Counted from the first letter of the stretch, positions 1 through 23,418 are shown. The stretch: DNA of 64,000 nucleotides from Bacilli bacterium (GCA_017542065.1 JAFXXX010000008.1:14444-78443); one strand, 5' to 3'. Notes: a model not told the origin generated them from the letters alone. A program made the numbers and translations.

Positions 1-3000
1 ATTAACAGCAGATAAGTTTGGATTACTTACTATATCATCTGCAGAATCATCTAATAAAGTAATCTTAGCATGTCCATTACCAAAGTTTCCAGACATGTAT
101 CCAGATGATGTATAGTCTGGCATTTCTTCAGACCCATTCTTCATAATAGCATTTGTTAAACTATCAGATACATATGAAGAACCACCAGTTCCACTAGAAC
201 CACCATAGTATCCTCCACCACTACCTGTATCACCATAACCTAAACGTGCTGAAGCAGATTGGTTACCACCGTTATTACCTTTAGCACCAGCTCCACCGGC
301 AACTATAATTCTTTGTTCATATGAAGCATCACTACGTTTATTTATTGTTATTCCATTATCATAAGTCCATATATTATCTTCACTTGATAGAGAAATATCT
401 GTAGCTCCTCCTCCAGTACCAGAAGTATACCAGTCATTAATAACACCACCATTATTAATTCCTCCACCATTATATGAACCAATATAAGAATGTGTAGATG
501 CTTTTCTACCAGATGATCCCATTTCACCAACGTGAATATATAATTTATCACCTTCATTAAGAGATATTATTCCAGAAGCATATGCTCCTTTACCACCATA
601 CACAGCACAAGTATCTGTAGCACAGCTACTATATGATCCTGCTGCAGAACCAGATGCACCCCAAGTTTCTAATTTATATAAACCTGTTTTTGGTGCGGTA
701 AATTCTTCTTGATGTCCAACATAAGAATAATTAAATGTTCTTTCAACATTCTTATTGTTTTCTCCAACAGTTAATACTCCACTATTATTTACTGCAGTTC
801 CATAACTTGGATCCACTATAGTATTTCCAATAATAGTTAAGTAACTACCAGAATTATTTACAAATGCAGTTGATGATTGATTTTTAATATTATTAAACTT
901 TGTATTATTAATAATCATCGAAGAACTATTACTTACAACAGTTGTAGCACTTGTAGCTGTTGAATTAACTATAGAATCATTCATTTCTAACTTAGATCTA
1001 TATTGAACACCAGCCCACCAACCATCAGTTCCATTATAGTTACTAATTACTGTACCAGATCCATTAATAGTAGAACCATTAACAACTGTATCTCCTCTAT
1101 TATCCATAGAACTAAATGTTGAATCATTTATTGTAAGATAACTATAACTATTATATACATGAGTAAGTGTAGAATTATCTACAGTTGTTATTCCAGAAGA
1201 TGATACACTTAATGTTCCATTTAAATTTAAATTACTTAAATATATCTTATTAGGATCTTTATTTGGTGCAACATAGAATGCATCATTACCAGTAGATTTA
1301 AAATTCGAATTAGTTACTATTACGTCATCTACTGACATTTCATAGAAACCAATTCCAGCTCCAGTTGCATTAATATTTGCAAATTTAACTGGTGCTATTG
1401 CCATGTTATAAACTGCAATTGCTCCTGTTGGAACAGTATTAATATTAATATTACTAATTAATGGAGTTTTACTTCTATTAACTAAACCATAAGCACTACC
1501 ATTAACATTTAATTTTCCACCATTACCAACTATTTCACCATTTGTTTCATTATAAATACCAACAGTATTAGTATTGTTAGAGTTTATTTCAAAATCTCTA
1601 TTTAAAATTAATGTACCTCTATTTTCGATACCATTCTTACCATTAACATTAAGATTAATTGCACCACTATTTAATGCTAATGTAGCATACTCATTATTTA
1701 AAATAGCACTAGCAATAGTTGTAGTTATACCACCATGATATGTATCGTCTACTGTATTATTAAATGAAATGTTTGTATCAGGAGTTAGTGTATTAATATT
1801 TACTGAATCATCAAAATTAATACCTTGAAGATAGTCAGCAAATTCAGGGTTTGTTTTAACACTATAAGTCTTTGATAATTGTTCTCTTAATCCATGTAAT
1901 TGTTCTGTTGGAGCAAGATATGTTAACTTAGCATAACCATTATTAGATTTAGAACAATTTTCAGTAGGAGTACTATTTGTACATGTTGTAGTTTCAGTTT
2001 TGGTATCTTCTTCAGTAGAAGTAGCACAGTTGTAACAAACCATTTTTTTGTTTAAAAGTAGTTCATTACCAATATAACCAGAACCTCCACCACCAGATGA
2101 TTCGGAACCACCGCCTCCACCGTAGAAGCCACCGCCTCCACCGCCTCCTTCAGAGCAGGCGTTTTCAGGAGAACTTCCTCCTAAACCAAATTTAGCAGTA
2201 GTCCATGAAAGCCACAATTCTGAACGTTCGGAAATATCCTCCCAACCATCTCCACCAAGTCCACCAGATGTTTGTGTACCTCCTGTAGCAGCTTGTTCAT
2301 CCCCATGGTTATTCCTATTTGTATGGGTTCCTTTATTACCAATATAGCCACCAGCTGATCCTCCTCGACCAGTTTGCCAACCGTCAATATTGAAACCGCC
2401 TCCACCACCACCGGCAACAATTAAAATGTTTTCTTTATCATTTTCTTCATCTAAATCTTTTAATTCACCAGAAATAGTAGCTATCGATGTGGCACCTCCA
2501 CCAGAAGCACCCCATCTATTAGAATATGATGTACAATCAGCACCGTGTGACGAACCACCACCATTATAACCACCAGGTAAAACAGAATTCATACTTGTAC
2601 TTCCCTGACCACCAACATTAACATAAATATTAGTGTTTTCAGTCAATTCAGTTTCACCAACTGAATATCCACCATAACCACCTATATTAGAAGGAGCAGA
2701 ACCACCTTGTGCGCCCCATACCTCTAGTTTATATAAACCTGTTATTGGTACATTAAATACTTGTTCTTTTTCTTCGCTATCTGAAACATAATCAAATGTA
2801 TATTCACTAGTAGTAAATCCAAAATCTGATAAATAATCTTCAATATGATCTAATTTATATTCATCACTAACCGAGCATCCATCACATAACCCAGCATATT
2901 CTTCATATTCAGCCTTATCATCCAAATATGCAGTTCTTGCTTCAGCATATAGTCTTGATTGTTCAGTTATATAGTTGACATTAGATTCATGTCTTTCTTC

Positions 3001-6000
3001 AAATTCACTATCTGTGATAGTTAATTTACCTTTATTTTGAATAATATAATCATTCTTTTCAGTAGTTAAAGTAAATCCATTTAAATCAAGAACAACTTCT
3101 TTTTCTTCAGGTACTATTATAGAAGTACTTAAAGTAATATTTTTAAGAATCTCAACTGTATCTACTTTTTCATTAAATACTGGTTTATCAAAATACATAT
3201 TGTTTATTTTAGTATATGAATCAGGATTGAATGAATAAGCATCATTTATATTATCAAATAGTCTTACTTCTTTTATAGTAAATGTATCAGAATATCCATC
3301 ATCAAATTTACTTTTTGCATATCTAAAATGAATATAATTTTCTTCATTACTATTTAATGTAATAATTGAAACTTGATTATCTTTAGAACCCGAAGTTTGA
3401 AATCTAACACCCTCTGAATTAGATGGTGTATTTGGCGAATTAGTTACATGGATATAACCATAATCTGAACCTTCACTACTTATAGAAGTTCTAACATATA
3501 AATATTTCTTTTCTGTAATTCCAGTTAAATCAATTTTAAAATATGTATGAGCAACTCCATAGCTTACACCTTGGTTATTACTAACATAATATGAACCATC
3601 TACAGAGCTTATTTTAAAATCTTCTCCATTTATATATATCTGTAAGTTTTCAGTATTATCTAATTCTTCAGGAGTTAATTCTTTATTAAAAATTTTAAAA
3701 TTATATATTGCTCCAGTAAAATTATTACCACTTGATCTTGTAGCTATATAACTATTTGTATTTGCTCCATTAGCAAAATTAGAATATTGTGTAGTTTCTA
3801 ATGCAATTCCGTCATAATATAATTTATATACATCATCTTTATATGTTAATAGTAAACTATGAATATTCCCATCATCTATAGTTTCAGGCATTACAAATGT
3901 ACTATAATGACCACTATTTGAAATAATAATACTAGATGACCATAATGCTATACATGTTTTTTCAGCAGATGAACCCATATATAAGAATGAATTACCTTTA
4001 TTTGGAGTAGTAAACTCAACATATATAGATTCTTCGTAATTATCTAAATTTAAATTAGCATTTGACATATAAGCATAATTAGAACCATTAAATGTTAATG
4101 CATTATTAGTAGCATTTGGAATTAATTTATTTGTACCAATAGATATATCAGTTGATGCAGAGTTCTTAATTTTAACAAGATCATAATCATATTTAATGAA
4201 CGTATATGTATCGTTATCATTCTTTAAGAATTCAGTTGTTTCTACTTCATCTACTGAATTTTTCTTTACAAAAGTCATACTGTTAATAACAAATTTTAAA
4301 CCTGCACTATACCAGTTATATTCGCCAAAGTGTAAATATGTTAACTTACCTTTTTCAAGAGTTACCGAATAATTTCCACTAGTAGACCAAATAGTTTCCA
4401 TAATTTTAGGAGCAGAATCATATCCAATATACTTAGAATTATCTGAAGTATACATCCAGAATCTAGCAGCACTACTAGTTGATGTAATACTTAGATTTAC
4501 AATTAATTCTAAATCTTCATCAACATTAGTTAAATCAAATGCAGCATATGAATGGGCAATAGTGTTACCACTTATTCCAGTATCAGAATTTATATAAGTT
4601 CCATCTTCTTGTTTAACAAAAGGATAATAATCAACATCATTATAAAGAACTATTTCTCTATTTTCATTACCTTCTCCAAGTATTCTAAAGTTTGAAACTT
4701 TGAAACCTTCGTATCTATTAACATCTCCTCCACCCTTAACAAAGCCAAAGTAAACATAATTTACTTTACCTTTTTCAAGTTTATAGAACATTGAAAATCT
4801 TCTATCATTTCCAGTAAGTCTTAATATTTGATTTCCAGTAGTAGATAAAGAATCACTAACAGATATATAACCATATGAACTTGAACTATAAGTATCAGCT
4901 AAACAATCAAATACTATAAATTGATCTTTATCATAATCAGTTAAATCTATTTTTAAATAAGATAATGCTGTTGTATTAGCAGTAGATTGATTACCACTAT
5001 AAATTTCATCATTTACAGCATCATATATAAATCCATAGTCTCCTGCTTGTTTTATTTTTGATAATAGTTTCGCTTCTTCAGTAGTAAATGAACCAGATCT
5101 AGTTGAATCAAAAGCATTAAGTCCACCATTGATTTTTAATTTTGCATAATAAGTACTTCTTATTCTTGCTTCTGGATCAGTAACTATATCAAGTGTACCA
5201 ATATTCTTATCATTTTCTCCTGTAAATACTACGTTATATGAATATTGTGTAATAACATCTTCACCATGATCTATCATCGCAGTTTCTTCAGATATAAGTT
5301 TTCCATCATAGAAATGGAATTCATTATTTTGTTCTATAGCATTTATTTTTCCTTCAATAATAGGTCTATCTAGTTCTGGATAAATAAATGTTTCACTTGG
5401 TTCAGATGAACCATCTCCTAAAACAAATATATTATTATTTATAATTGCTTTATCTATATTACCTTTAACAAATCCAATTGATTCATGTTCATCACCATTC
5501 ATTCTGGGATTTCTATCTACTATTTGTAGTTTTCCATTGTTAATAAATGTAGCATTTTCATTACTTGTTATCCCTCTTCCATCAAGATCTATTGTTATAT
5601 CTTGATTAGAAGCTATTACTACACTTTCATTTACAACAGGTAATATTGGATTAGTTTGAATAGTACACTGAATTTCAGCACAGTAATTAACTGCAGCTTG
5701 AATACTATCAAACATTAAGAATTCTTTACCATCTTCTAAAACAAATTCTTTAGTATCTGGATCTACTGTATACCATAAGATTCCATTTTTACCAACTACT
5801 CTAGCAACATATGGATGAGTAGTTACTTCTACTTCTTTTTCTGATACATTACCAACATAGTCTTCTGCAACTATCTTAACAATATATTCAGTATTATCTT
5901 GAACACCATAGAATGTATGATCATAATTTTCAGCATGATCTTTTATTCCATCAAATGTATCTGATACATAAGTTAATGTATCATCATAAACTAATGCATC

Positions 6001-9000
6001 TTTTTCTTTAACGTATAAAGTAAATTTCTTAACACCAGAACCAGCATCTTGTGCAGTACCACTAACTGTCATATTAAATGACATAGATCCAGTACCTGGA
6101 TTATTAATTGTTGGTGCAATACTATCAACGTTGATTATATCTTCAGTAGCATTTGGACTATATATATTATTCTTTTTAGCAAATGCTGTAATAATAGTAT
6201 TTTCATATACTTTAAATGGACCAGTATATTCTACTGCATCACCATCACCAATTTTATAATATAAAGTGTATTCTGGATCGTCTTTACCAGATGTAATAGT
6301 AACTGTATCACCACATTCATCATTACTTGAATTAGAACATACCCAAGTTCTATTAGTTGTTTCATCTAATGTTGGTGTATATGTAATAACTGGTTCAATG
6401 ACCATTTCATATACAGCATATAAATCTTTATTTGTAGTTATATGAGTATCAAAATCAAATGGATTAGTTCCATCCTCAGTCCAATATAAGAATATACCAT
6501 GAGCTTTAGTTGGATTTTCACTAGGAGCTGTAGTTGTTGTATTCCAATCTACTTCATCAGTTGAATAAACTGTATCTTCATTATGATATACAACATTAAA
6601 CTTATTAATTTGATAATAAGCCTTTAAATTTTTATCCCCAGTAGAACCTGTTGGAATACTAGTTATTATATTATTACCTTCTTTATAATGTAAGAAAGTA
6701 TAACCTTCTTTTTCTGGTACATTAAATGTAATTTCATCACTTTCAATTGTATATCTATCAATGTTTGTAACACCTTGTGGTAAATTACCGCCATCATAAT
6801 CATAAGTAATATTATAAACAATTGGAGTATAGTTTGCTAAGAAACTTCTATGACCTATACTACCAGTTGGAATAGTTACTGTAGTATTTTCATTACCAAT
6901 TAAATCTGTTCCAGACCATCCTTTAAATGTATATCCATTCTTACTTGGATTATTTAATGTAATATCATCGCTTTCAATTGTATATTTATCTGGATTAGAT
7001 TTACCAGTTTCATAATTACCATCATTTAATGTATATGATAATGAATATTCAATTGCTCTAAAGTTTGCTGTATATTCTCTATTTCCAGTTGAACCAGTTG
7101 GAATTACTACTGATGTAGATTTATCAGTAATATCTGTTCCAGACCATCCAATAAATTCATAACCTGTTCTAGTTGGATTATTTAATGTGATAGAAGCTGA
7201 CTCTATGTCATATCCTGTTGGATTTCTTAAAGCAGTTTCTTCTTCAGTCGTTAATCCATGATAAACAATCTCATAAGGAATAACCTCATAATTAGCAGTA
7301 TATGCTCTATCTCCTGCTGAACCTTTAGGTATAGTAACAGTTGTAGTATTACCTGTTAAACCAGTTCCTGTCCATCCAAGGAATGTATATCCGTTCTTAC
7401 TTGGATTATTTAATGTAAATGTCTCTGTTTGTCTTGTATAAGTACTTGGATTAGTTTTTCCTTCCGCATATACACCATCATTTAGATTATAAGTGATAGC
7501 ATAATCATCAGCATTTTCTCTCCATACAGCAGTATAAGTTCTATTACCTATACTTCCTTTTGGAATAGTTACTGTTAATGAAACATTTCCATTTCCATCA
7601 TCCCATCCAAGGAAATCTTGATAGTTATTACCTTGATCATCTAATCTAGTACTTGGATTATTTAAAGTAAATGTATCAGTTTCAACATTATATTCAGTTC
7701 TATTATTTAATAATGTCTTTTCTGTATCAGTAATATTTTCATATGTAATACTATAGTTTATTATTTCATAGATAGCTGTTAAAGTTCCATCATCATTATC
7801 AAATAAATAAGTTAAATTTTGATAAGTTCCTCCACCTACATGGTCATATCTTATAAAGTTATATCCTCTTTTAACTGATTCACTAAGAACTTTTAAAGTT
7901 CCATAATCTTCAGTAAATGTAACTAATGAAGCATTATCTTCATAAGTTCCACCATTAGGATCAACTGATAATGTTGATCTATTAATTTGATAATGAGCAG
8001 TATATGTTCTCTTACCAGTTGAACCTTCAGGAATTGTAACTGTTTCAGTTACGTCTGATAAACCAGTTCCTGTCCAACCAACAAATGTGAATCCTTCTTT
8101 AGTTGGATTATTAAGTGTAAATGAATCTCTAACTGTATATGTTATTGGATTAGCTACTGCTACACTTCCACCATCTAATTCATATTCAATTTCATAATTG
8201 TTAATAGTATAAGAAGTATATAATTCTGTATCTCCAGTTATTGGATCATCATCATAACAACTATCATATAAAGAGAAACATTTAAATGTATATCCATTAT
8301 ACTCAGGATGATCAATTAATTCTACTGATTCACCCTCTGGAACTTCCACTATAGCAAGTACAGTTTCTTGATCATTATTTGGATTCTTATCAATAAATGT
8401 TACATTATATTTTTTGTTTTCAATTTTTCCATATAATGCTAAGTCTTTAGTAACTTTGTTGTTAAAGTTATATTTATTAGTATAATTCTTATCTGTATAC
8501 CAACCAGCAAAGTTTTCTATATGTGGATCAATGTTTTCTATTTTTTCAGAATTAATAACATATAATTCTTTATAAACACTATTGTTTAAATAATAAACAA
8601 CATATTTATAATCATCACCGTGTGCAATAGCAGTATTAATATAAGTTTTAGCTTCATCTGTTTTAACAATATCAAGAACTAGTGTTACACTAGTTTTTTC
8701 AAATGCATTAATTTCTGTGCCTTCTAATGGAGTATAGAATAAATTATTATCTTCTTTAGTCCATCCTGGGTTTTTGCTTTCATCAAAACTCATGCCTTCA
8801 GGAATAACATCTTGAATTGTAGATATAGTACCTTTTACTTCTCCATCATTTTTTAAATAAATATTATAGTAAATAGAACCTTCAATTGTTTTAGCATTTT
8901 TAACACTTTTTAACACTTTAGTTTCATCATTATAATTAAATGTTTCCTTTTTACCATTAACTACTAGATCTAATTTACTAATAGTTTTAGTTATATTTAA

Positions 9001-9759
9001 AGTAAATGGTTCTACTTCTTTAATAACTAGATTTAAAACTCTTCTATTTTGATCAGTAGTTTCTTCAGTATATCTAACTAATTTGTATTTAGTTTCTGCT
9101 ACTCTTACTTCATAAGTATCAATATCACCTAAACTAAATACATATTTACCATCTTCTTTAGAATAAGTTTTCTTTACTTCTTCACCATTCTTTAATAAAC
9201 TAAGCTCTACTCCAGCATATATAGTGCCTTCTTCATCTAATATAGTACCTTCTACTGATTTACCAGTTATAGTAACTGGATCTACATTTATTTTAGACTT
9301 GGATTCATCTTCACTATTAATAGTAAATTTTGGATTAAATGTAATTCCATATGGTGCATTCTCTACAATAACAGTTATAACAACTTTATTTTTTGTAGTA
9401 GTAACTGTTATTGTTTTACCATCAGCACTAACTACTGAATCTTTAATTTCTTTAAACCTAGCATACTTATTTTCATTATTGGAAAGTGTACCTGTGATAA
9501 TAGCAGTATCACTAGAATCTTTATTAACTTTAATTTGATATTTTATCTCATCATAGTTATTAGATGTAATCTCATCTTGAACTCCATCTATAACTGATGC
9601 ACTTAATGTATTAGTCTTAGTTAAAATTTTAGAAATTTTAATTGTCTTATTACTTTCATTTATCATAGAAGCTAAACACATTAAAAAGACCAATAATAAT
9701 ACTATTATTGTTGTTATTGCATATTTTTTTAATTTTAATTTTCTTAAAGATTCTTTCAT
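1..9759 (-). CDS. Giant secreted/surface multidomain protein, 3'-truncated by the window edge (>=3253 aa). Absent from the supplied ORF track.
   Basis: Hand translation of the minus strand. ATG at 9759-9757 is preceded by GGATGGTG. The frame then stays open to base 1 (9759 = 3 x 3253). Spot checks of plus-strand triplets phased 1 mod 3 at ~350, 1200, 2040, 3000, 5000, 6000, 7500 and 9000 show no tta/cta/tca. The translation is coherent throughout (MKESLRKLKLKKYAITTIIVLLLVFLMCLASM...GNGHAKITLLDDSADDIVSNPNLSAVN). Confidence 0.9.
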   Translation of the reverse strand, partial: MKESLRKLKLKKYAITTIIVLLLVFLMCLASMINESNKTIKISKILTKTNTLSASVIDGVQDEITSNNYDEIKYQIKVNKDSSDTAIITGTLSNNENKYARFKEIKDSVVSADGKTITVTTTKNKVVITVIVENAPYGITFNPKFTINSEDESKSKINVDPVTITGKSVEGTILDEEGTIYAGVELSLLKNGEEVKKTYSKEDGKYVFSLGDIDTYEVRVAETKYKLVRYTEETTDQNRRVLNLVIKEVEPFTLNITKTISKLDLVVNGKKETFNYNDETKVLKSVKNAKTIEGSIYYNIYLKNDGEVKGTISTIQDVIPEGMSFDESKNPGWTKEDNNLFYTPLEGTEINAFEKTSVTLVLDIVKTDEAKTYINTAIAHGDDYKYVVYYLNNSVYKELYVINSEKIENIDPHIENFAGWYTDKNYTNKYNFNNKVTKDLALYGKIENKKYNVTFIDKNPNNDQETVLAIVEVPEGESVELIDHPEYNGYTFKCFSLYDSCYDDDPITGDTELYTSYTINNYEIEYELDGGSVAVANPITYTVRDSFTLNNPTKEGFTFVGWTGTGLSDVTETVTIPEGSTGKRTYTAHYQINRSTLSVDPNGGTYEDNASLVTFTEDYGTLKVLSESVKRGYNFIRYDHVGGGTYQNLTYLFDNDDGTLTAIYEIINYSITYENITDTEKTLLNNRTEYNVETDTFTLNNPSTRLDDQGNNYQDFLGWDDGNGNVSLTVTIPKGSIGNRTYTAVWRENADDYAITYNLNDGVYAEGKTNPSTYTRQTETFTLNNPSKNGYTFLGWTGTGLTGNTTTVTIPKGSAGDRAYTANYEVIPYEIVYHGLTTEEETALRNPTGYDIESASITLNNPTRTGYEFIGWSGTDITDKSTSVVIPTGSTGNREYTANFRAIEYSLSYTLNDGNYETGKSNPDKYTIESDDITLNNPSKNGYTFKGWSGTDLIGNENTTVTIPTGSIGHRSFLANYTPIVYNITYDYDGGNLPQGVTNIDRYTIESDEITFNVPEKEGYTFLHYKEGNNIITSIPTGSTGDKNLKAYYQINKFNVVYHNEDTVYSTDEVDWNTTTTAPSENPTKAHGIFLYWTEDGTNPFDFDTHITTNKDLYAVYEMVIEPVITYTPTLDETTNRTWVCSNSSNDECGDTVTITSGKDDPEYTLYYKIGDGDAVEYTGPFKVYENTIITAFAKKNNIYSPNATEDIINVDSIAPTINNPGTGSMSFNMTVSGTAQDAGSGVKKFTLYVKEKDALVYDDTLTYVSDTFDGIKDHAENYDHTFYGVQDNTEYIVKIVAEDYVGNVSEKEVEVTTHPYVARVVGKNGILWYTVDPDTKEFVLEDGKEFLMFDSIQAAVNYCAEIQCTIQTNPILPVVNESVVIASNQDITIDLDGRGITSNENATFINNGKLQIVDRNPRMNGDEHESIGFVKGNIDKAIINNNIFVLGDGSSEPSETFIYPELDRPIIEGKINAIEQNNEFHFYDGKLISEETAMIDHGEDVITQYSYNVVFTGENDKNIGTLDIVTDPEARIRSTYYAKLKINGGLNAFDSTRSGSFTTEEAKLLSKIKQAGDYGFIYDAVNDEIYSGNQSTANTTALSYLKIDLTDYDKDQFIVFDCLADTYSSSSYGYISVSDSLSTTGNQILRLTGNDRRFSMFYKLEKGKVNYVYFGFVKGGGDVNRYEGFKVSNFRILGEGNENREIVLYNDVDYYPFVKQEDGTYINSDTGISGNTIAHSYAAFDLTNVDEDLELIVNLSITSTSSAARFWMYTSDNSKYIGYDSAPKIMETIWSTSGNYSVTLEKGKLTYLHFGEYNWYSAGLKFVINSMTFVKKNSVDEVETTEFLKNDNDTYTFIKYDYDLVKIKNSASTDISIGTNKLIPNATNNALTFNGSNYAYMSNANLNLDNYEESIYVEFTTPNKGNSFLYMGSSAEKTCIALWSSSIIISNSGHYSTFVMPETIDDGNIHSLLLTYKDDVYKLYYDGIALETTQYSNFANGANTNSYIATRSSGNNFTGAIYNFKIFNKELTPEELDNTENLQIYINGEDFKISSVDGSYYVSNNQGVSYGVAHTYFKIDLTGITEKKYLYVRTSISSEGSDYGYIHVTNSPNTPSNSEGVRFQTSGSKDNQVSIITLNSNEENYIHFRYAKSKFDDGYSDTFTIKEVRLFDNINDAYSFNPDSYTKINNMYFDKPVFNEKVDTVEILKNITLSTSIIVPEEKEVVLDLNGFTLTTEKNDYIIQNKGKLTITDSEFEERHESNVNYITEQSRLYAEARTAYLDDKAEYEEYAGLCDGCSVSDEYKLDHIEDYLSDFGFTTSEYTFDYVSDSEEKEQVFNVPITGLYKLEVWGAQGGSAPSNIGGYGGYSVGETELTENTNIYVNVGGQGSTSMNSVLPGGYNGGGSSHGADCTSYSNRWGASGGGATSIATISGELKDLDEENDKENILIVAGGGGGGFNIDGWQTGRGGSAGGYIGNKGTHTNRNNHGDEQAATGGTQTSGGLGGDGWEDISERSELWLSWTTAKFGLGGSSPENACSEGGGGGGGFYGGGGGSESSGGGGSGYIGNELLLNKKMVCYNCATSTEEDTKTETTTCTNSTPTENCSKSNNGYAKLTYLAPTEQLHGLREQLSKTYSVKTNPEFADYLQGINFDDSVNINTLTPDTNISFNNTVDDTYHGGITTTIASAILNNEYATLALNSGAINLNVNGKNGIENRGTLILNRDFEINSNNTNTVGIYNETNGEIVGNGGKLNVNGSAYGLVNRSKTPLISNININTVPTGAIAVYNMAIAPVKFANINATGAGIGFYEMSVDDVIVTNSNFKSTGNDAFYVAPNKDPNKIYLSNLNLNGTLSVSSSGITTVDNSTLTHVYNSYSYLTINDSTFSSMDNRGDTVVNGSTINGSGTVISNYNGTDGWWAGVQYRSKLEMNDSIVNSTATSATTVVSNSSSMIINNTKFNNIKNQSSTAFVNNSGSYLTIIGNTIVDPSYGTAVNNSGVLTVGENNKNVERTFNYSYVGHQEEFTAPKTGLYKLETWGASGSAAGSYSSCATDTCAVYGGKGAYASGIISLNEGDKLYIHVGEMGSSGRKASTHSYIGSYNGGGINNGGVINDWYTSGTGGGATDISLSSEDNIWTYDNGITINKRSDASYEQRIIVAGGAGAKGNNGGNQSASARLGYGDTGSGGGYYGGSSGTGGSSYVSDSLTNAIMKNGSEEMPDYTSSGYMSGNFGNGHAKITLLDDSADDIVSNPNLSAVN
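55..730 (-). other. Glycine-rich domain copy 2 (ALK/LTK-type Gly_rich family)
   Basis: FTAPKTGLYKLETWGASGSAAGS...YGGKGAYASGIISLNEGDKLYIHVGEMGS...SYNGGGINNGG...SGTGGGATDISL...RIIVAGGAGAKGNNGGN...GSGGGYYGGSSGTGGSSYVS...GNGHAKITLL. Confidence 0.75.
730..1900 (-). other. Right-handed beta-helix-like repeat region between the two glycine-rich domains
   Basis: Many short repeats rich in N/G/T/I (INLNVNGKNGIENRGTLILN, NGGKLNVNGSAYGLVN, LNLNGTLSVSSSGITTVDNSTLT, IINNTKFNNIKNQSS). The style matches the 898-aa protein at 13226..15922. Confidence 0.5.
1915..2770 (-). other. Glycine-rich domain copy 1 (ALK/LTK-type Gly_rich family)
   Basis: FNVPITGLYKLEVWGAQGGSAPSNIGGYGGYSVGETELTENTNIYVNVGGQGS...GGYNGGGSS...WGASGGGATSI...ILIVAGGGGGGF...GGGGGGGFYGGGGGSESSGGGGSGYIGN...NNGYAKLTYL. 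Confidence 0.75.
3260..5060 (-). repeat. Three paralogous ~120-aa modules of unknown family (about 4690-5060, 4265-4660 and 3260-3650), interrupted by a LamG domain
   Basis: Shared pattern: ...(A/V)(L/H)(S/T)Y.(K/A)(I/F)DLT......(L/F).(V/I).......S..YGYI.V......(~40 aa)...G(K).NY(V/L/I)(Y/H)FG(F/E/Y).K......(F)..(V/I)....(I/L/F). Examples: ALSYLKIDLTDYDKDQFIVF, AHSYAAFDLTNVDEDLELIV, AHTYFKIDLTGITEKKYLYV. Confidence 0.6.
3660..4140 (-). other. LamG / concanavalin-A-like lectin domain in the giant ORF
   Basis: LTFNGSNYAYMSNANLNLDNYEESIYVEFTT...GNIHSLLLTYKDDVYKLYYDGIALETTQYSNFANGANTNSYIATRSSGNNFTGAIYNFKIFNKELTPEEL. The F.G.IY.(F/V)(K/R)I(Y/F)N.(A/E)L(T/S).EE signature is typical of LamG-like jellyrolls. 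Confidence 0.6.
5815..6130 (-). other. Ig/Fn3-like domain in the giant ORF
   Basis: IAPTINNPGTGSMSFNMTVSGTAQDAGSGVKKFTLYVKEKDA...YIVKIVAEDYVGNVSEKEVEVTT. The alternating beta-strand pattern is typical of Ig-like surface domains. Confidence 0.4.
6400..8560 (-). repeat. About 9-10 tandem Listeria-Bacteroides (Flg_new-type) repeats of ~70 aa each, inside the giant ORF
   Basis: Recurring pattern Y.I.Y.L(N/D)GG ... (Y/F)T(I/R)E(S/T)..(I/F)TLNNP(S/T)K.GYTF.GW(T/S)GT(G/D)L ... TVTIP.GS.G.R.YTA.Y with a period of ~210-230 nt. Confidence 0.8.
8655..9290 (-). other. Cna-B / carboxypeptidase-regulatory-like domain plus a beta-sandwich module, paralogous to 34715..35465
   Basis: GKSVEGTILDEEGTIYAGVELSLLKNGEEVKKTYSKEDGKYVFSLGDIDTYEVRV is followed by ITKTISKLDLVVNGKKETFNYNDETKVLKSVKNAKTIEGSIYYNIYLKNDGEVKGTISTIQDVIPEGMSFDESKNPGW. 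It has the same order and motifs as the 1483-aa protein (ITKVDLSYNG...SKVLLSVRNSLKA...YEDIPYGLVFDSSDPYNAGW). Confidence 0.5.
9655..9759 (-). other. N-terminal signal peptide / membrane anchor of the giant protein
   Basis: Basic N-terminus (KESLRKLKLKK) followed by the hydrophobic stretch YAITTIIVLLLVFLMCLASM. Confidence 0.7.
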
Positions 9760-9788
9760 ACTATACACCATCCATTATACTTATAAGT

Positions 9789-9817
9789 ATTATATCATTT
9801 TTAGTATTTTTAAACAA
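9789..9817 (-). promoter_or_regulatory. Sigma-A type promoter of the giant gene
   Basis: Minus strand: TTGTTT (9817-9812), 17 nt spacer, TATAAT (9794-9789) with a TGa extended -10. It lies about 30 nt upstream of ATG 9759. Confidence 0.6.
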
Positions 9818-9818
9818 T

Positions 9819-9848
9819 AAAAAAAGGCATAAATTAAGCCCTTTTTTT
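9819..9848 (-). terminator. Weak rho-independent terminator after the Ppx-like gene
   Basis: Minus strand AAAAAGGGC-ttaatttat-GCCTTTTTTT. The stem is short and bulged, with a T-run. Confidence 0.4.
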
Positions 9849-9910
9849 AAGATTTTTCTGCTAAAATTCTATCCAAATCATAAACTCCATCTAGAGTCTT
9901 ACTTTATCCA

Positions 9911-10804
9911 TTATATCTCTTTCATTAGCTTTTCTTTTATTCCATCTTCCATATTAATTTTAGTAGGAATAATATATTTTGCATCTATCTTATTAGATAT
10001 CATATCAGTTATTACTTTCATAGCTCTTGATCCATCAAACCAACTAGGATTATCACTATTATTTCTAATTCTATCAAGGGATGTAACTAATGCATCTCTA
10101 TCATATATATCACTCATATCTTTAGTAATCATATATTTTTGATTATCGTTTTTATATAAAGTGTTTTCAAGCATTCCATACTCAGCATTAGTATACCAAT
10201 AAATATGATCTCCTCCACCAAGTATTAATAAATCTGCTTTAATAGTTAAATCATTTATTAAATTATCCACATAGTTATATACTTCATCAAAAGTACATGT
10301 AGGAATATCATCTTTTAAACTAGGAAATTCACTAGTAACATCTACTACTCCAAAATTATAATACTTTCTATCTATTACTTCATTATTGTTTACAAATATA
10401 AGTTCAATAGAACCTCCACCACCAATAAACACACAAATATTACCATCAAAATCTACATTAGAATAACATCCTAAAGCAGTATAATTTGCTTCATCTTCTT
10501 GAGTAACTACTTCTATTTCTAAACTATATTTTTCTTTAATAACAGTGTTTATTTCATCTAATTCTTCTTTAGAAATATTTCTAAATATACTACATCCATA
10601 AATATGAACATTATCTGTATATTTAAATGCCTTCCCAATAATTTCATATAATTTTTCTAAATCACTAGATATTATTCTGCCATTTTCTTTGTAATTTGCT
10701 TTAAGTTTTATGGTAGTAGTATTCTCATAAATAACGTTACCATCTTCATATACGTGAGTTTTTGTATTATTACTACCTATTTCTATAATTGCGAATTTCT
10801 TCAT
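9911..10804 (-). CDS. Ppx/GppA-family (ASKHA fold) phosphatase-like protein, 297 aa
   Basis: N-terminal IIEIGSNNTK resembles the Ppx/GppA phosphate-1 motif. FIGGGGSIEL is a second glycine loop. Confidence 0.6.
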   Translation of the reverse strand: MKKFAIIEIGSNNTKTHVYEDGNVIYENTTTIKLKANYKENGRIISSDLEKLYEIIGKAFKYTDNVHIYGCSIFRNISKEELDEINTVIKEKYSLEIEVVTQEDEANYTALGCYSNVDFDGNICVFIGGGGSIELIFVNNNEVIDRKYYNFGVVDVTSEFPSLKDDIPTCTFDEVYNYVDNLINDLTIKADLLILGGGDHIYWYTNAEYGMLENTLYKNDNQKYMITKDMSDIYDRDALVTSLDRIRNNSDNPSWFDGSRAMKVITDMISNKIDAKYIIPTKINMEDGIKEKLMKEI

Positions 10805-10805
10805 A

Positions 10806-11483
10806 TTATTTCCTCTTTAGACTTCTTAGATAATCTTTATGTTCATCTGTAACCCTGTAACTTTCCACAGCTTTTTGAATTGTTTTATTATGAACCCAAA
10901 TATCTAGCTTATTATTCTCAATATATTTAATTGCACTGTCATATTGCTTAGCTAAAGCTGTGGCAAAATACCACGCAATCATCATATTAACATAGTATTC
11001 ATCTGATTTAATCTTAGATACTAATTCTAAATATTCTTCTTTAAAATTATCATCTAGATAACTTCTCATAAGCATACCTATACCAAATCTAATAGTATAA
11101 GTTTCTTTTGATTTAATCCACTTCTTTATTTCACCAATTAACTTATCAGTATTCTTTAAGAATGATTTAGGAGTACTTTGATCACAAGTAGCCCAGTTAT
11201 CAACATATGGTAAAAATTTATTAACATAGTCTAAACATTTATCATAATCTTTTATTTCGCCTAGTATAAATGCATGTAATTGATTTTCATCAAAATACTT
11301 ATGTGGTAAATCATTTAGGAACCCTTCATAATTATTACTCTTATATAATTCCTTAGCCTTTTTTCTTAGCTCTGGAGATCTAACACCAATAATAGTATCA
11401 GGATCAATATTAGTAATAGTTTTAACTTGTATCTCTCTATATTTTTTATCCTGTAATTTAAATAATTCTTTTTCTATATTCAT
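10806..11483 (-). CDS. DNA alkylation repair protein (AlkD-like HEAT-repeat family)
   Basis: IIGVRSPELRKKAKELYKS and DNWATCDQ motifs are typical of the DNA_alkylation family. Size is 225 aa. Confidence 0.7.
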   Translation of the reverse strand: MNIEKELFKLQDKKYREIQVKTITNIDPDTIIGVRSPELRKKAKELYKSNNYEGFLNDLPHKYFDENQLHAFILGEIKDYDKCLDYVNKFLPYVDNWATCDQSTPKSFLKNTDKLIGEIKKWIKSKETYTIRFGIGMLMRSYLDDNFKEEYLELVSKIKSDEYYVNMMIAWYFATALAKQYDSAIKYIENNKLDIWVHNKTIQKAVESYRVTDEHKDYLRSLKRK

Positions 11484-11493
11484 AATTATCTCA

Positions 11494-12555
11494 CTAACTA
11501 TTTTTCTTAATTATTATTTCATCTACTTTATCAATTCTATCATTATATTCATTTATTTCATCTACTGATAATTCAATAAAATCATCATCACTAACATGAT
11601 ATTGCTTTTTTAATTCAATAATTTTTAAAGCACTATTTGTTATCTCATCACTATATTTTTTATACATATTATAAAAAGTATTAATAACTTTTTCTTCTTT
11701 CTTAGTTGGATAATTAAACATAATAATATCATTACCTGCTTCTAAAGCAAGTTTTGCAGTTTTAATCCATCCATATCTATATCTAACAGATCTCATTTTT
11801 AAATCATCTGTTACTGTTATACCATTATAATTTTCTTTGATTTCATCTTGTACTTTTCTAGATAAACTAACAGGTAATTTATCTTTATCTTTAACTTTTA
11901 TATGACTTAAAAGTACACCAGGTACTCCTTCACTCATAAGAGTATTAAATGGTTTTAGATCTTCTTCCTCTATAGACTTTATTGATGGAAGTAATATATG
12001 AGTATCTACTCTTACTTTTCTTAAACCAGGATAATGTTTAATAATAGGAACCACATTATTTTCTTTATGAGATTCTATTATTATTCTTGTATTTTTTATA
12101 ACTTCTTTACTAGTTCTACCAAAACATCTATTGCCAATAGATTTAGATATATTTTCATCATAAATATCTAATACAGGTTCTAAATTCATATTAATACCAG
12201 ATCTACTTAATATTTCTGCAGTTATATCTCCTACTTCTTTTATTACATCAGTAGAACATATAGAAGATGCTAAAGCATTTTTAATTCTATGAAACTCAGA
12301 TGGTAATCTATTAACAATACCATTTTCTTGGTCAACACAAATAAATAGAGGTATTTTATTGACTCTATTTAATTCTTTTAATTTCTTAATAAGAGATATC
12401 ATTTCATAATAACTATCATAGTTATTTCTATATAAAATGAATCCTCCTACTTTATACTTTTGAATTAATTCTTTAACATGGTCTTCATTAACTGGTCCTT
12501 CAAAACCTACTAATAGTTTTTGACCAATTAATTCTCTCTTAGTATACTTTTCCAT
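11494..12555 (-). CDS. Glycoside hydrolase family 3 N-terminal-domain protein (NagZ-like beta-N-acetylhexosaminidase)
   Basis: LIGQKLLVGFEG, KVGGFILYRNNY and IIKHYPG (KH(F/Y)PG motif). Confidence 0.75.
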   Translation of the reverse strand: MEKYTKRELIGQKLLVGFEGPVNEDHVKELIQKYKVGGFILYRNNYDSYYEMISLIKKLKELNRVNKIPLFICVDQENGIVNRLPSEFHRIKNALASSICSTDVIKEVGDITAEILSRSGINMNLEPVLDIYDENISKSIGNRCFGRTSKEVIKNTRIIIESHKENNVVPIIKHYPGLRKVRVDTHILLPSIKSIEEEDLKPFNTLMSEGVPGVLLSHIKVKDKDKLPVSLSRKVQDEIKENYNGITVTDDLKMRSVRYRYGWIKTAKLALEAGNDIIMFNYPTKKEEKVINTFYNMYKKYSDEITNSALKIIELKKQYHVSDDDFIELSVDEINEYNDRIDKVDEIIIKKNS

Positions 12556-12595
12556 TTACATCATCCCAATCACTTATATTTTATCAAATAATATT

Positions 12596-13183
12596 TTAGT
12601 TAACAATTCCTAATAAAATAGTTAATATCCCAAGTACTATATGTGTTAAAACTACACCACATAGATTATGATCTTTCTTATAAAATAAGTATAATATAAT
12701 TCCTAGAATAAATGTTAATATGCATGTTAAATAATCTCTATAAATTATATGAACAAGTGAATAACATAAACTAGATATTATTATCCATAAATAATTATAT
12801 TTACTATTTAAATCAAAATATCCAAAGACTCCTCTATATAAGAATTCTTGAATAGGACAAGATATGAATATATAAAACAAATAAAATAATAAAGTTTCTG
12901 TAGGATTATATTTACCTATATGTAATAGTTTCAATACTATAATTATTATTATACTTATACCTATTAGTATTAAATTTCTTTTAATAGATTTAACTAAGTT
13001 CTCTTTAGTTATTCCAAGTTCTTTATTTTTAACTCCAAATAATTTCATTAATAAGAATATTAATAAACCTATACCTGTTAATATATAAAACTTAATATCA
13101 TATAGATATTTATTAAAGAATATTATAACAGGAGTCACTATATAAATTAATAAAATAATCCCTAATAAAACTTTATTTTTCAT
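12596..13183 (-). CDS. CPBP-family intramembrane metalloprotease
   Basis: Polytopic protein with QEFLYRGV (EExxxR-type motif) and a downstream SLVH histidine motif. Confidence 0.75.
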   Translation of the reverse strand: MKNKVLLGIILLIYIVTPVIIFFNKYLYDIKFYILTGIGLLIFLLMKLFGVKNKELGITKENLVKSIKRNLILIGISIIIIIVLKLLHIGKYNPTETLLFYLFYIFISCPIQEFLYRGVFGYFDLNSKYNYLWIIISSLCYSLVHIIYRDYLTCILTFILGIILYLFYKKDHNLCGVVLTHIVLGILTILLGIVN

Positions 13184-13201
13184 ATACTTACCTCTATATA
13201 A

Positions 13202-13210
13202 ATTATAACA
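13202..13210 (-). promoter_or_regulatory. Extended -10 promoter (TGTTATAAT) for the CPBP gene
   Basis: Minus strand ...CTTTTTTTATGTTATAAT..., directly after the terminator T-tract. Confidence 0.5.
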
Positions 13211-13238
13211 TAAAAAAAGATGTCATTAGACATCTTTT
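13211..13238 (-). terminator. Rho-independent terminator overlapping the stop of the 898-aa gene
   Basis: Minus strand AGATGTC-TAAT-GACATCT followed by TTTTTTT. Confidence 0.7.
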
Positions 13239-15922: not shown

Positions 15923-15992
15923 AATACTCTTTCTACCTTTCTACATACTTAACTTCATATTATCACAAAATAAAGATGTATTCAATAAAAAT

Positions 15993-16020
15993 AAAAAATG
16001 ATAGACACTTCTATCACTTT
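15993..16020 (-). terminator. Rho-independent terminator after the alpha/beta hydrolase gene
   Basis: Minus strand TGATAGA-AGTG-TCTATCA followed by TTTTTT. It overlaps the stop region. Confidence 0.6.
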
Positions 16021-16706
16021 TTTATATTCTTATCCAGATATTTTTCAACTTCATTATTAAACTCTTCAGGATTCTTATTCGCTATATGATGTGGTCCTTC
16101 AATAATCTTAAATTCTGAATTAGGTAAACTATCAGCTATTAACCTTGAATGTTTTTCTTTAATCATATCCTTTGTACCAACAATAACAAGTGTCGGAACT
16201 TTAATAGATGATAAATCTCTATAATCAATATTTGGTTCATTAACCATTAATCCTAACATTTCTGCTTTTAATTTTGCTTCTTCAGATTTTTTTGAAGAAA
16301 GTTTAGCAATTCTATATCCTATTTCAATAGGAATTTGAACTGATTTTTTTACGCCTTTAGTAGTTAAATCTGCCCCGTTTAGTATTAATACATCAATCAT
16401 ATCAGAATATTTTAATGCAAATTTTATTGCTATATTAGCACCATCAGAAAAACCAAGTAATATCATTTTTTTGATTTTTAAATCATCTAAAAGATCTTTT
16501 AAGTCTTCAACAAACTGATCCATAGTAAATGGCGCAGTCCCCCTAGGAGATTTACCATGGCCTCTAGTATCTACAGTTATTACTCTATATTTACTTGAAA
16601 AATAATCAACTTGATGTTTAAAATAAGACCCATCATCCCCATTACCATGTAATAAAACTAATGGGATTCCTTTTCCTTTTTCTTCATAATATAGTTTTAT
16701 ATCCAT
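16014..16706 (-). CDS. Alpha/beta-fold hydrolase
   Basis: LVLLHGNGDD (oxyanion region) and the GFSDGA nucleophile elbow (GxSxG). Size is 230 aa. Confidence 0.75.
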   Translation of the reverse strand: MDIKLYYEEKGKGIPLVLLHGNGDDGSYFKHQVDYFSSKYRVITVDTRGHGKSPRGTAPFTMDQFVEDLKDLLDDLKIKKMILLGFSDGANIAIKFALKYSDMIDVLILNGADLTTKGVKKSVQIPIEIGYRIAKLSSKKSEEAKLKAEMLGLMVNEPNIDYRDLSSIKVPTLVIVGTKDMIKEKHSRLIADSLPNSEFKIIEGPHHIANKNPEEFNNEVEKYLDKNIKK

Positions 16707-16714
16707 ATTATTCT

Positions 16715-16800
16715 TTCCTTTCTAAAACCATAACACTTTCAACATGCCTAGTATGCAGTCAACGAACATATCGTTTAACCATGTATTTGGTCAACGAACA
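16715..16800 (-). pseudogene. Relic of the 3' end of a RumA-type methyltransferase gene, with an internal 15-nt direct repeat
   Basis: The minus strand reads ...HTRHVESVMVLERKE*, versus the end of the intact gene at 17370: ...ETSHVETVMVLEKKN*. At the DNA level, ttctaaaaccat is identical in both and 15 of the following 21 nt match. gtcaacgaacatatc occurs twice (16758-16772 and 16781-16795). Confidence 0.45.
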
Positions 16801-16810
16801 TATCATTTTT

Positions 16811-17323
16811 TTATTTTAATAATTTTTTATATACTTTTACCGCTTCAGTTATTTCTCTATCAAAAAAAACTGATCTAGGATTGGATTTATCACATAAATG
16901 TTTACTTATCTTTTCTATATCTACTAATTCAAGTGAAAAATTATCTTTTTTTTCTTTCTCAGTCATTTGTTTATTGCCATTATCTATTCCCCTAAATGTG
17001 CCATAGTAAAAATAAGTCTTGCTCAATCTATTTAAGACTGTGTTTTCTCGTGTTGGATAATTAGGTTGAAAGTATTCTAGTAAAAACAACTCATTTAATT
17101 CATTCTCACTATATATAATTCCTGTTTCCTCATGTAATTCTCTTATTAATCCTTGTAAATTTGTTTCGCCTTTATCAGTTTTTCCTCCGGGAAGCATAAC
17201 TGCTCCTCCATAATTACATATTAACAATTGTTTTTTTAAAACTAATAACGCTCTTACCTTTATGTTTATTTTATCTATTTGATTCTCTTTTAAATTTTCT
17301 TCATTAATAATTATTCTTTCCAT
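16811..17323 (-). CDS. NUDIX hydrolase
   Basis: Nudix box GGKTDKGETNLQGLIRELHEETGI. The start was moved from the track's GTG (17332) to ATG 17323, which lies 8 nt after GGGAG. Confidence 0.85.
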   Translation of the reverse strand: MERIIINEENLKENQIDKINIKVRALLVLKKQLLICNYGGAVMLPGGKTDKGETNLQGLIRELHEETGIIYSENELNELFLLEYFQPNYPTRENTVLNRLSKTYFYYGTFRGIDNGNKQMTEKEKKDNFSLELVDIEKISKHLCDKSNPRSVFFDREITEAVKVYKKLLK

Positions 17324-17369
17324 ATTACACACTCCCTGATTTATTTAAATATAGCATATAATTATATAA

Positions 17370-18575: not shown

Positions 18576-18582
18576 AAATCAC

Positions 18583-19329: not shown

Positions 19330-19331
19330 AA

Positions 19332-20153: not shown

Positions 20154-20169
20154 TTCAATCACCAATAAT

Positions 20170-20178
20170 ATTTTACCA
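20170..20178 (-). promoter_or_regulatory. Extended -10 promoter (TGGTAAAAT) for the ogg operon
   Basis: Minus strand TTTTTTTGTGGTAAAAT, immediately after the REC-gene terminator. Confidence 0.45.
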
Positions 20179-20180
20179 CA

Positions 20181-20205
20181 AAAAAAGAATAATTAATTAT
20201 TCTTT
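20181..20205 (-). terminator. Rho-independent terminator after the REC gene
   Basis: Minus strand AAGAATAA-TTAA-TTATTCTT followed by TTTTTT. It overlaps the stop codon. Confidence 0.6.
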
Positions 20206-20603: not shown

Positions 20604-20605
20604 AA

Positions 20606-20962: not shown

Positions 20963-20985
20963 ATAACCCTCCGTCTACTATATTA

Positions 20986-20994: not shown

Positions 20995-21008
20995 TAATAA
21001 GAAAACAA

Positions 21009-21812: not shown

Positions 21813-21836
21813 AATTCTCCCCCAAATATGCAAGAT

Positions 21837-23416: not shown

Positions 23417-23418
23417 AT

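Follow-up and report, generated by a model that had tools for sequence, protein, structure and literature searches.

Among the fibrillar and giant wall adhesins of Gram-positive bacteria are Ebh of Staphylococcus aureus, SasG/Aap and the MSCRAMMs of the Cna/Sdr family. A gene coding for a predicted surface protein of comparable organization was found at one edge of a 64,000-nucleotide stretch of DNA from a Bacilli bacterium (GCA_017542065.1 JAFXXX010000008.1:14444-78443), hereafter referred to as the window, where it occupies positions 1..9759 on the minus strand and continues beyond base 1. The body of its product, here called the giant protein, is a chain of extracellular-type modules, and both its sequence and structure models suggest that it is probably a C-terminally anchored cell-surface fibril binding glycans or the host, with adhesion as its likely function. 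As in the known adhesins, an N-terminal export signal, lectin-like modules and an acidic isoelectric point (pI) are predicted, together with a repeated beta-sandwich stalk (CarboxypepD_reg/Cna-B-like, SdrD_B-like and Ig/FN3 domains) and a C-terminal tail consisting of a motif, a transmembrane (TM) segment and basic residues. In contrast, homology to these adhesins is limited to the generic stalk domains, the C-terminal motif is xIQTG/AHQTG and not LPXTG, and a size of about 5000 amino acids (aa) is conserved across the family. We know of no characterised Gram-positive adhesin that carries the solenoid modules and the ALK-type glycine-rich domains (GRDs) described below.

A second likeness is to InlB of Listeria monocytogenes and the proteins with Flg_new or TIGR02543 repeats, as the giant protein contains about 10 such repeats, the first of which aligns to the InlB B-repeat structure. 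Unlike InlB, it has neither the leucine-rich-repeat internalin domain nor GW modules, and the repeats make up 14% of the protein. Large proteins of 10,000-30,000 aa, rich in Listeria-Bacteroides repeats and proposed to bind surface glycoproteins, have been described in gut Clostridia, and the giant proteins of Omnitrophota contain many TM regions as well as a divergent SecA DEAD helicase domain (10.1101/2023.11.21.568195). Unlike these giants of Omnitrophota and Clostridia, the protein studied here is of about 5000 aa, with two hydrophobic segments and no SecA/DEAD match. In its way of working it would resemble the Gram-positive wall-associated adhesins, and by sequence it is assigned to the Flg_new/InlB-B-repeat and PF12810 domain families.

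In the animal literature, the GRD of ALK and LTK is treated as a hallmark of ALK-family receptors, and ligand binding was reportedly assigned to this domain by the ALK/LTK-ligand complex structures of 2021. Two MAM domains precede the region homologous to the GRD in the ALK ectodomain, and the ALKAL/Augmentor cytokines are the ligands of ALK and LTK (PMC10605310). Polyglycine-II domains mediate host recognition in the gp38 adhesin of phage S16, according to work cited in PMC13243192.

Integrity and full extent of the giant gene

The gene had first been proposed from the DNA sequence alone (hereafter, the original prediction) as one uninterrupted minus-strand frame from ATG 9759 to base 1. Translation of the reverse complement of window 1..9759 gave 3253 codons with zero stops, and no in-frame stop had been missed. 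The remaining two minus-strand frames of the same region contain 249 and 609 stops, and a run of 3253 stop-free codons is expected by chance at about 1e-136, given the base composition of the minus strand. In exact agreement with the original prediction, the ORFs listed for 1..9759 are two off-frame open reading frames (ORFs) on the minus strand (348-557 and 2181-2420) and two antisense ORFs on the plus strand (9224-9538 and 9708-10142). The giant ORF is missing from this list because ORFs running off an end go unlisted. An ORF track that drops end-truncated ORFs has hidden the largest gene of the window, which had rightly been named its largest investment of coding capacity, and any other giant gene that extends past the edge of a window will be lost in this way.

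The stop was expected outside the window, and was found there. Contig L001, which matches the window with 0 mismatches over 19.7 kb, carries the giant gene at 10001-25123, reaching the stop at 5040 aa, and the window fragment is 100% identical to residues 1-3253 of a database protein of this length (P0001, the numbering of which is used throughout). The window covers aa 1-3253, the N-terminal 65% of the protein, encoded by the first 3253 codons (1..9759, minus strand) of a 5040-codon gene of 15,123 nt, and the remaining 1787 codons lie past base 1. The earlier figure of at least 3253 aa was right for the open frame, and the full size proved larger than the window shows; the first reading was essentially right but incomplete, since a third of the protein, with the anchor, is encoded outside the window.

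The full-length protein has a mass of 550 kDa and a pI of 4.5, and only two hydrophobic segments were detected in its 5040 aa, one at each end (aa 13-33 and aa 5015-5031). The identical protein is encoded by 8 contigs, each assembled from a different ENA sample (metagenomes), which indicates that the gene is not chimeric; the homologues described below, more than 100 in number, gave no sign of a chimera either. DNA-level repeats able to cause collapse or chimera were not found in the gene, nor were long homopolymers. The GC content at third codon positions (GC3) is 8.9%, as compared with 6-13% for the neighbouring genes. The giant gene is intact, its composition is native, and it has been assembled reproducibly. 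That it was acquired horizontally or came from a phage was considered and rejected, as GC3 is like that of the neighbours and the context is chromosomal.

A family of giant proteins in gut Bacilli

The database search yielded 246 proteins at E<=1e-10, and among 120 listed more than 100 were near-full-length homologues of 4200-5650 aa. When a profile built from the N-terminal 440 aa was searched, the full N-terminal module (residues 41-480) was recognised in about 60 of the 150 top-ranking representatives (50% identity). One member is named 'InlB B-repeat-containing protein [Bacilli bacterium]' in NCBI, and the NCBI titles of the hosts read Bacilli, Firmicutes, Erysipelotrichaceae and 'Clostridium sp. 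CAG:433', the last being from the human gut. The GTDB species genomes with the family are metagenome-assembled genomes (MAGs) from gut compartments of water buffalo, water deer, cattle, sheep and goat, and from rabbits. Thus far no characterised homologue has been found, in accordance with the claim that the domain combination is unlike that of any characterised protein, though the family itself is already present in public databases. By sequence, this is an uncharacterised family of giant adhesin-like proteins in an uncultured lineage of gut Bacilli. It is distinguished by restriction to this lineage, by the xIQTG signal, and by a conserved architecture of about 5000 aa that joins solenoids, CBM/MAM-like jelly rolls, LamG and two ALK-type GRDs. 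The uncultured Bacilli of ruminant, rabbit and human guts carry, in other words, genes of about 15 kb for predicted surface fibrils of 550 kDa.

Conservation is uneven along the protein. More than 80% of members share the N-terminal 1800 aa and the 350 aa at the C-terminal end, and the variable parts among 119 homologues are LamG (about 25%), the solenoid between the GRDs (about 18%) and GRD2. Between close homologues, identity is 26-53% for the jelly-roll and LamG modules as against 65-88% for the N-terminal 1560 aa. Two close homologues, P0005 (2225 aa) and P0023 (2054 aa), end early, at about aa 2050-2225, with non-homologous tails, and may reflect contig errors or alleles that are truncated or frameshifted.

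Two copies of the giant gene occur in each of three MAGs. The genome studied here itself contains a paralogue of 5071 aa (P0009), which ends with TIQTG and is encoded at another locus (L024:10001-28871); upstream of it lies a gene whose product exceeds 1558 aa and shows weak dockerin and choline-binding matches.

The C-terminal signal

Extension of the contig to the left, which had been suggested as the way to find the stop and any sorting signal, revealed after the last domain a QTG motif, a TM segment and a basic tail. The C-terminus of the giant protein reads ...AELTLAHQTG-YTRH-LYWIITIPIILVLFMLL-KLSKKRETN. As many as 115 of 120 family members end with L-I-[IL]-x-[IL]-Q-T-G, followed by x-x-[KR]-x-x-Y, about 17 hydrophobic residues and KK/RK, and the Q, T and G are essentially invariant across the family (general form [LI][IL]x[IL]QTG). 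The pentapeptide is AHQTG in this protein and [MTSAQ][IL]QTG in the family, with a spacer of 5-6 residues before the hydrophobic stretch. As in the layout of cell-wall sorting signals, the motif is followed by a hydrophobic segment and then by a positively charged tail. In front of this signal and 3' of the solenoids, beyond the window, is a domain of about 200 aa that is probably prealbumin-like, as suggested by sub-threshold SpaA, SdrD_B and TTR matches of homologues; the weak SpaA match of one family member and the SdrD_B match of another are located directly before the C-terminal signal.

The genome should be capable of sortase anchoring, since it encodes at least three sortases and also canonical substrates with IPKTG and MPKTS signals. 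Two of the sortase genes (PF04203) are in the window, at 27232-27828 and 48854-49348, both on the minus strand, and the third, for a class-B-like enzyme of 235 aa with TLSTC, is four genes downstream of the paralogous giant gene. Genes for LtaS and a PASTA kinase were found beside homologues, which together with the sortases argues for a walled host. The closest described precedent for the motif is CbpA of Clostridium difficile, a surface adhesin with an [VI]QTG box, a hydrophobic segment and a basic tail at its C-terminus (PMC4155245), but with no other sequence homology to the giant protein.

Module chain of the N-terminal part

The first 33 residues (9661..9759, minus strand) comprise a basic n-region (MKESLRKLKLKK) and a 21-residue hydrophobic segment at aa 13-33, in support of the N-terminal anchor that had been claimed. 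This type of N-terminus, recognised by hydrophobicity, is conserved across homologues, and is predicted to be a Sec signal peptide or a signal anchor. The giant protein has a possible cleavage site, C-L-A|S, and most homologues have no clear AXA site. Next comes a conserved N-terminal domain at aa 40-165 (9265..9642, minus strand) with an invariant YARFK motif and further invariant columns in the homologue alignment. More than 90% of 119 homologues have this domain, for which no Pfam, NCBIfam or PDB sequence match was obtained. With anchoring of the protein at the C-terminus, it would form the distal tip.

Two beta-sandwiches follow on the minus strand. The first, at aa 168-237 (9049..9258), is of the CarboxypepD_reg/Cna-B-like type (PF13620, E=1.5e-7, 32.1 bits against a cut-off of 32.3) and shows an additional weak SdrD_B match; the second, at aa 282-383 (8611..8916), is DUF11-like (PF01345, E=8e-5, 23.3 bits against 24.6). 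They correspond to the Cna-B-like domain and beta-sandwich of the original prediction, both matches being slightly below the Pfam cut-off.

The repeat region at aa 396-1109 (6433..8574, minus strand) consists of about 10 Listeria-Bacteroides or InlB B-repeats with a period of about 77 aa, as judged by profiles and self-BLAST. Eight clear copies of 77 aa occupy aa 507-1109, and one or two divergent ones start from about aa 396, so that the earlier count of about 10 holds. All three profiles scored above their curated cut-offs: PF09479 with 112.9 bits against 27 (E=7.8e-33), PF18998 with 58 against 23.6 (9.6e-16), and TIGR02543 with 154.2 against 20.95 (7.6e-46). Additional 'repeats' given beyond aa 507-1109 by a second-iteration repeat hidden Markov model (HMM) were disregarded, as this HMM was contaminated by weak seeds. 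In PDB profile search, the first copy matched the InlB B-repeat structure 2y5p, and this B-repeat was the sole result of the PDB sequence-profile searches made with the jelly-roll, N-terminal, solenoid and C-terminal regions.

A single Ig-like domain had been described after the repeats. The Ig-type fold was supported, but two FN3/Ig-like domains were found in place of one, at aa 1135-1320 (5800..6357, minus strand), by AlphaFold2 modelling of aa 1135-1572 (pLDDT 84.5) and Foldseek search, in which the model matched FN3 tandems and the HPI surface-layer (S-layer) protein of Deinococcus with E of about 1e-6. The same segment also gave a weak CHB_HEX_C_1 match.

Jelly-roll, LamG and solenoid modules

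The module that had been described as triplicated and unknown was confirmed in its three copies, all on the minus strand and bounded by aa 1577-1695, 1714-1832 and 2060-2168. Copies 1 and 2, within aa 1565-1835 (4255..5067), were modelled by AlphaFold2 as two sandwiches of 8-9 strands (pLDDT 85.4), and copy 3, within aa 2050-2180 (3220..3612), was recognised by self-BLAST of aa 1588-1694 against aa 2060-2168 (E=3e-5). The module is no longer of unknown type: it gave no PDB sequence match, but its modelled fold is that of a CBM/MAM-like beta-jelly-roll. In Foldseek search, copies 1 and 2 matched SGBP-B of Bacteroides thetaiotaomicron (7kwb), a CBM22 tandem (4xup) and GH101/EngBF modules, and also the MAM domains of meprin and RPTPmu, the best matches listed having E of 1e-7 to 1e-5. 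Altogether 142 PDB matches were obtained at E<=1e-3, with TM-scores of 0.25-0.41, which are low because two domains were searched together. Between copies 2 and 3 lies a LamG/concanavalin-A-like lectin domain at aa 1906-2033 (3661..4044, minus strand), for which the match to PF13385 (Laminin_G_3; E=6.8e-9) was above the Pfam cut-off, with 36.5 bits against 27.6, as expected from the original prediction.

Solenoid-like modules are interspersed with these domains. A short one at aa 1321-1560 (5080..5799, minus strand) was modelled by AlphaFold2 with about 20 short strands at pLDDT above 90, and ends with the cap motif P.I.G....FYDG. It gave no family match, and the Foldseek matches listed were all on the FN3 half of the model. 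Further copies of the cap motif are found at aa 3660-3700, 4190-4215 and 4720-4745, in three further, interrelated solenoid modules beyond the window (about aa 3340-3720, 3740-4230 and 4240-4780). On the minus strand within the window, a solenoid-module start and linker at aa 2185-2310 (2830..3207) resembles the start of the module at aa 3340-3427, and N/T-rich solenoid-like repeats between the GRDs, at aa 2640-3005 (745..1842), show a weak periodicity of 24 residues; neither gave a family match. Overall, the motif spacing is weak, at 22-27 residues, and the solenoid segments gave no Pfam or NCBIfam match at E<=1 and no PDB sequence match over the 1500-aa solenoid region. The one solenoid-like module that was modelled is consistent with a beta-helix. 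Of the beta-helix and beta-helix repeats proposed before, the solenoid-like strand pattern and the spacing were recovered, and a family or fold match was not.

Glycine-rich domains

Both glycine-rich domains of the original prediction belong to PF12810 (ALK_LTK_GRD), which scored 205.3 bits on the window part of the protein against a cut-off of 24.5. GRD1 at aa 2340-2615 (1915..2742, minus strand) is complete, covering profile positions 7-243 of 243 (E=5e-41, 141.7 bits). GRD2 at aa 3024-3240 (40..690, minus strand) is a divergent copy, 36% identical to GRD1 over 187 aa, and matches in two stretches, the better at profile positions 6-114 (E=1.8e-25, 90.8 bits). GRD1 also matched the GRD of Caenorhabditis elegans SCD-2 (7lir) by sequence (E=2e-6). 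Compared with the metazoan ALK/LTK GRD, which combines a TNF-like and a polyglycine-II part (PF12810; 7lir, 7nx1, 7n00), the giant protein has two copies, the first matching the whole profile, and its GRD comes after MAM-like jelly rolls, as in ALK. Unlike ALK/LTK, the protein is bacterial and the domain stands in an extracellular-structural context; the likeness of the fold is read from sequence, and an ALKAL cytokine cannot be the ligand of the bacterial giant. No kinase, EGF or LDLa module was found in family scans of the giant-protein segments. Identity as an ALK-family receptor was rejected, the protein being bacterial and without a kinase or EGF family match.

The closest relatives of GRD1 (50-60% identity) were not other giants but proteins of 360-620 aa, many of which have the type IV prepilin N-terminal methylation domain (PF07963) fused to PF12810. 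These prepilin-GRD proteins of the same Bacilli lineage are like the giant protein in having the closest GRDs, predicted surface display and, in some, Flg_new repeats; they differ in size, in the type IV pilin N-terminus and in forming tandem arrays, and the window codes for none of them. A related genome (L025:1-10344) has at least seven such genes in tandem, one with an additional Flg_new repeat, and downstream of this array are the radical-SAM and LeuRS genes that also follow the giant gene in L001. The fusion to type IV prepilins in tandem arrays of at least seven suggests that the GRD is a recurrent surface-displayed module in this lineage, and its display on both pilins and giant fibrils would support the predicted binding role. 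GRD1 also matched three PHROG families (phrog_1589, phrog_5811 and phrog_7388; E of about 1e-35), all of 'unknown function', suggesting that ALK-type GRDs occur in phage proteins too; tblastn of GRD1 against 50,697 phage genomes gave nothing, a search in which the low-complexity filter may have masked the glycine runs.

A literature search for bacterial PF12810 proteins gave no paper, and the only paper found with the term PF12810 was a genome comparison of a nematode-parasitic fungus. Most interest attaches to the bacterial GRD and to the sorting motif. We tentatively suggest, as a possibility with less than even chances, that the ALK/LTK GRD is a widespread bacterial surface-binding module, used by this lineage in giant wall-anchored fibrils and in tandem pilin arrays, and that [LI][IL]x[IL]QTG is a sorting signal not described before and read by a sortase other than class A. 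If both are true, the binding of GRDs could be studied with this family in a tractable bacterial model, a new sortase specificity would be added, and the bacterial GRDs would be a possible evolutionary source of the metazoan domain. The role of ALK-type GRDs outside animals, and whether xIQTG is a genuine sortase signal, are questions that this family brings within experimental reach.

Proposed function and alternative explanations

In the model that we favour, the giant protein would be exported by Sec, and its C-terminus would be held at the surface by sortase cross-linking to peptidoglycan at QT|G or by a tail anchor. The solenoid modules would form the wall-proximal stalk of the fibril, and the conserved N-terminal 1800 aa its distal part. 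The jelly-roll, LamG and GRD modules would be exposed and bind ligands, the likeliest being glycans of feed particles, of host mucus or of other microbes. Adhesion is the likely function because the fast-evolving lectin-like modules are expected to bind ligands, and a middle region of this kind would make the giants prime candidates for attachment to feed particles, mucus and partner cells.

Several observations weigh against this model. No adhesive domain with a known ligand was identified in the giant protein, and the beta-helices of the stalk are proposed from the strand pattern of one model and the weak periodicity. Most homologues have no obvious signal-peptidase site, so that the N-terminus may stay embedded in the membrane and the protein may be tethered at both ends. 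At the C-terminus, no LPXTG pentapeptide was found 30-40 residues from the end, and the anchor HMMs (TIGR01167 and PF00746) gave no match at threshold for this protein, the match of one homologue to PF00746 (Gram_pos_anchor) being weak (E=0.04). No sortase gene was detected within 10 kb of the giant gene here or at three other family loci. Finally, SrtB failed in vitro to cleave the NVQTG peptide of C. difficile CbpA (PMC4155245, PMC4371152), which leaves the CbpA precedent itself unproven. With a non-LPXTG motif, no adjacent sortase and an uncleaved precedent, sortase attachment can only be inferred.

The same C-terminal observations, including the absence of the Leu-Pro of LPXTG, would suit a fibril of identical build that is not linked by sortase. 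The TM helix and basic tail would then be a permanent membrane tail anchor, perhaps combined with an uncleaved N-terminal signal anchor, and QTG would serve another enzyme or helix packing. An Rce1-like CPBP protease, encoded three genes upstream of the giant gene both here and in the closest relative (L004), is in keeping with this anchoring step, but the CPBP gene is not kept beside distant family members. The order of xxQTG, spacer, about 17 hydrophobic residues and KK/RK is the exact layout of a cell-wall sorting signal, a Q-T-G kept without change in 115 of 120 members points to recognition by an enzyme, and of the genome's sortases, at least three in number, one is encoded near the paralogue. 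We consider a tail anchor to be a live, though less likely, alternative to sortase at this step.

The fibril model was also compared with that of a giant surface-bound enzyme for polysaccharide degradation, in which the beta-helices would be catalytic, of the pectate-lyase or glycosidase type, and the CBM-like and LamG modules would target glycans of plant cell walls or mucin. Five or six solenoid-like modules do adjoin CBM-like jelly rolls and LamG, the habitat is rumen or gut, and one family member weakly (E=0.04) matches PF20585, 'pectate lyase-like adhesive domain'. This family is, however, described as adhesive and not catalytic. No catalytic carbohydrate-active enzyme, lyase or peptidase family was found in the 5040 aa even at E<=1, and the 1500-aa solenoid region lacks a PDB sequence match, which together make an enzyme improbable.

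An equally poor prospect is a structural envelope or coat, like an S-layer or capsule, that would protect against phage, grazers or host factors and not serve adhesion. The very large gene, the two paralogues in three MAGs, the Foldseek match to the Deinococcus HPI S-layer protein and a variable middle region, as expected of a surface exposed to phage or immunity, are all compatible with a coat. On the other hand, no SLH, CWB2 or other S-layer anchoring domains were detected, binding proteins typically contain such a chain of lectin-type modules, and a single C-terminal anchor fits a fibril better than a lattice. A chimeric assembly, decayed pseudogene or chance open frame, for which there is the general prior that very long metagenomic ORFs can be mis-assemblies, is already refuted for practical purposes by the chance expectation, the identical gene on 8 contigs of separate samples, the absence of DNA repeats prone to collapse or chimeras, and more than 100 full-length homologues with the same N- and C-termini. 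A toxin or contact-dependent inhibition system was also considered for the giant protein and rejected, the C-terminus being an anchor and no toxin domain being found.

Upstream region of the giant gene

Two in-frame stops are located within 10 codons 5' of ATG 9759. This ATG has GGTG 6 nt upstream, and an alternative ATG 5 codons further up is without a Shine-Dalgarno-like sequence. The resulting N-terminus, MKES..., is supported by gene callers and by all homologues, which start with MK(E/D)xL.

A promoter-like site was read from the sequence at 9789..9817 on the minus strand, about 30 nt upstream of ATG 9759, with TTGTTT (9817-9812), a 17-nt spacer and TATAAT (9794-9789), preceded by TG at -15/-14 to form the extended -10 element TGaTATAAT. 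The -35 box agrees with the consensus at 3 of 6 positions, on account of which the site is absent from the list of a consensus scan of 9600-10100. Matches to the promoter consensus were near background, 6 being found against 4.4 expected in 500 bp of DNA with 25% GC. The motif that had been presented as the gene's own promoter is indeed there; its status as a promoter is plausible but unproven, because such consensus matches are common in DNA of this composition.

Between this site and the ppx-like gene upstream, a perfect 10-bp hairpin (TAAAAAAAGG / CCTTTTTTTA, with a 12-nt loop; inverted repeat I19) is located at 9818..9849 on the minus strand, 3' of the ppx-like gene. It is likely to be a weak terminator that would set the giant gene apart as its own transcription unit. 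The terminator scan of 9600-10100 called none, the hairpin being passed over because of its few G-C pairs and long loop. An invertible promoter or phase variation was rejected, as the inverted repeats near the promoter-like site are short AT-rich chance matches; along window 1-10000, there is no homopolymer of 9 or more bases, and the only tandem repeats are two trivial ones. The ORF at 9708-10142 on the plus strand, of 144 aa with a TTG start, is antisense to the start of the giant gene, the promoter-like site and the ppx-like gene, and is probably spurious, given the AT-rich DNA.

Gene neighbourhood and other surface proteins of the window

Gene neighbourhoods are not conserved in the family. 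Four distant family loci are located among unrelated housekeeping genes, and no dedicated secretion system, chaperone or sortase was found beside the giant genes at the compared loci. Conserved operon partners were rejected, since the upstream neighbours are common only to the closest relative (L004). Directly downstream of the giant gene, ahead of the radical-SAM and LeuRS genes, is a gene for an 84-aa coiled-coil and TM protein (L001:25173-25427), and its counterpart (L004:9486-9791, 81% identical) is located directly upstream of the giant gene in that relative. Despite this rearrangement, the small gene adjoins the giant gene in both, and in these two close relatives only.

Other genes for predicted surface proteins were noted on the minus strand of the window. 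In the region 12596-15922, the gene for a Flg_new-repeat protein of 898 aa, which has a signal peptide and an IPKTG sorting signal, is followed by that for the 195-aa Rce1-like CPBP intramembrane protease, which has a weak match to the Synerg-CTERM protease MrtS. The sortase at 27232-27828 (198 aa, TLVTC; PF04203, E=1.7e-20) is encoded among unrelated genes and may be the housekeeping sortase. At 48854-51020, a gene for a 563-aa thioester-domain (TED) protein, which contains three SpaA prealbumin-like domains and ends with MPKTS, a TM helix and KKNN, overlaps by 20 nt the gene for a 164-aa sortase (TLITC), and the two constitute a compact pair of adhesin and dedicated sortase. The second-largest gene in the window, at 34023-38474, codes for a secreted protein of 1483 aa with one SdrD_B domain and no C-terminal anchor, the rest being without family match. 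A 777-aa protein encoded at 23448-25781 begins with a zinc ribbon, followed by a TM segment, and has no further family match.

Over the whole window, 1-64000, the GC content is 23-32% and almost all genes are on the minus strand. The GC skew (cumulative -7.9) is negative everywhere apart from 52-56 kb, a segment that contains two plus-strand genes and a tRNA-Gly gene. The gene orientation and GC skew suggest that the whole window is on one replichore with a strong gene-strand bias.

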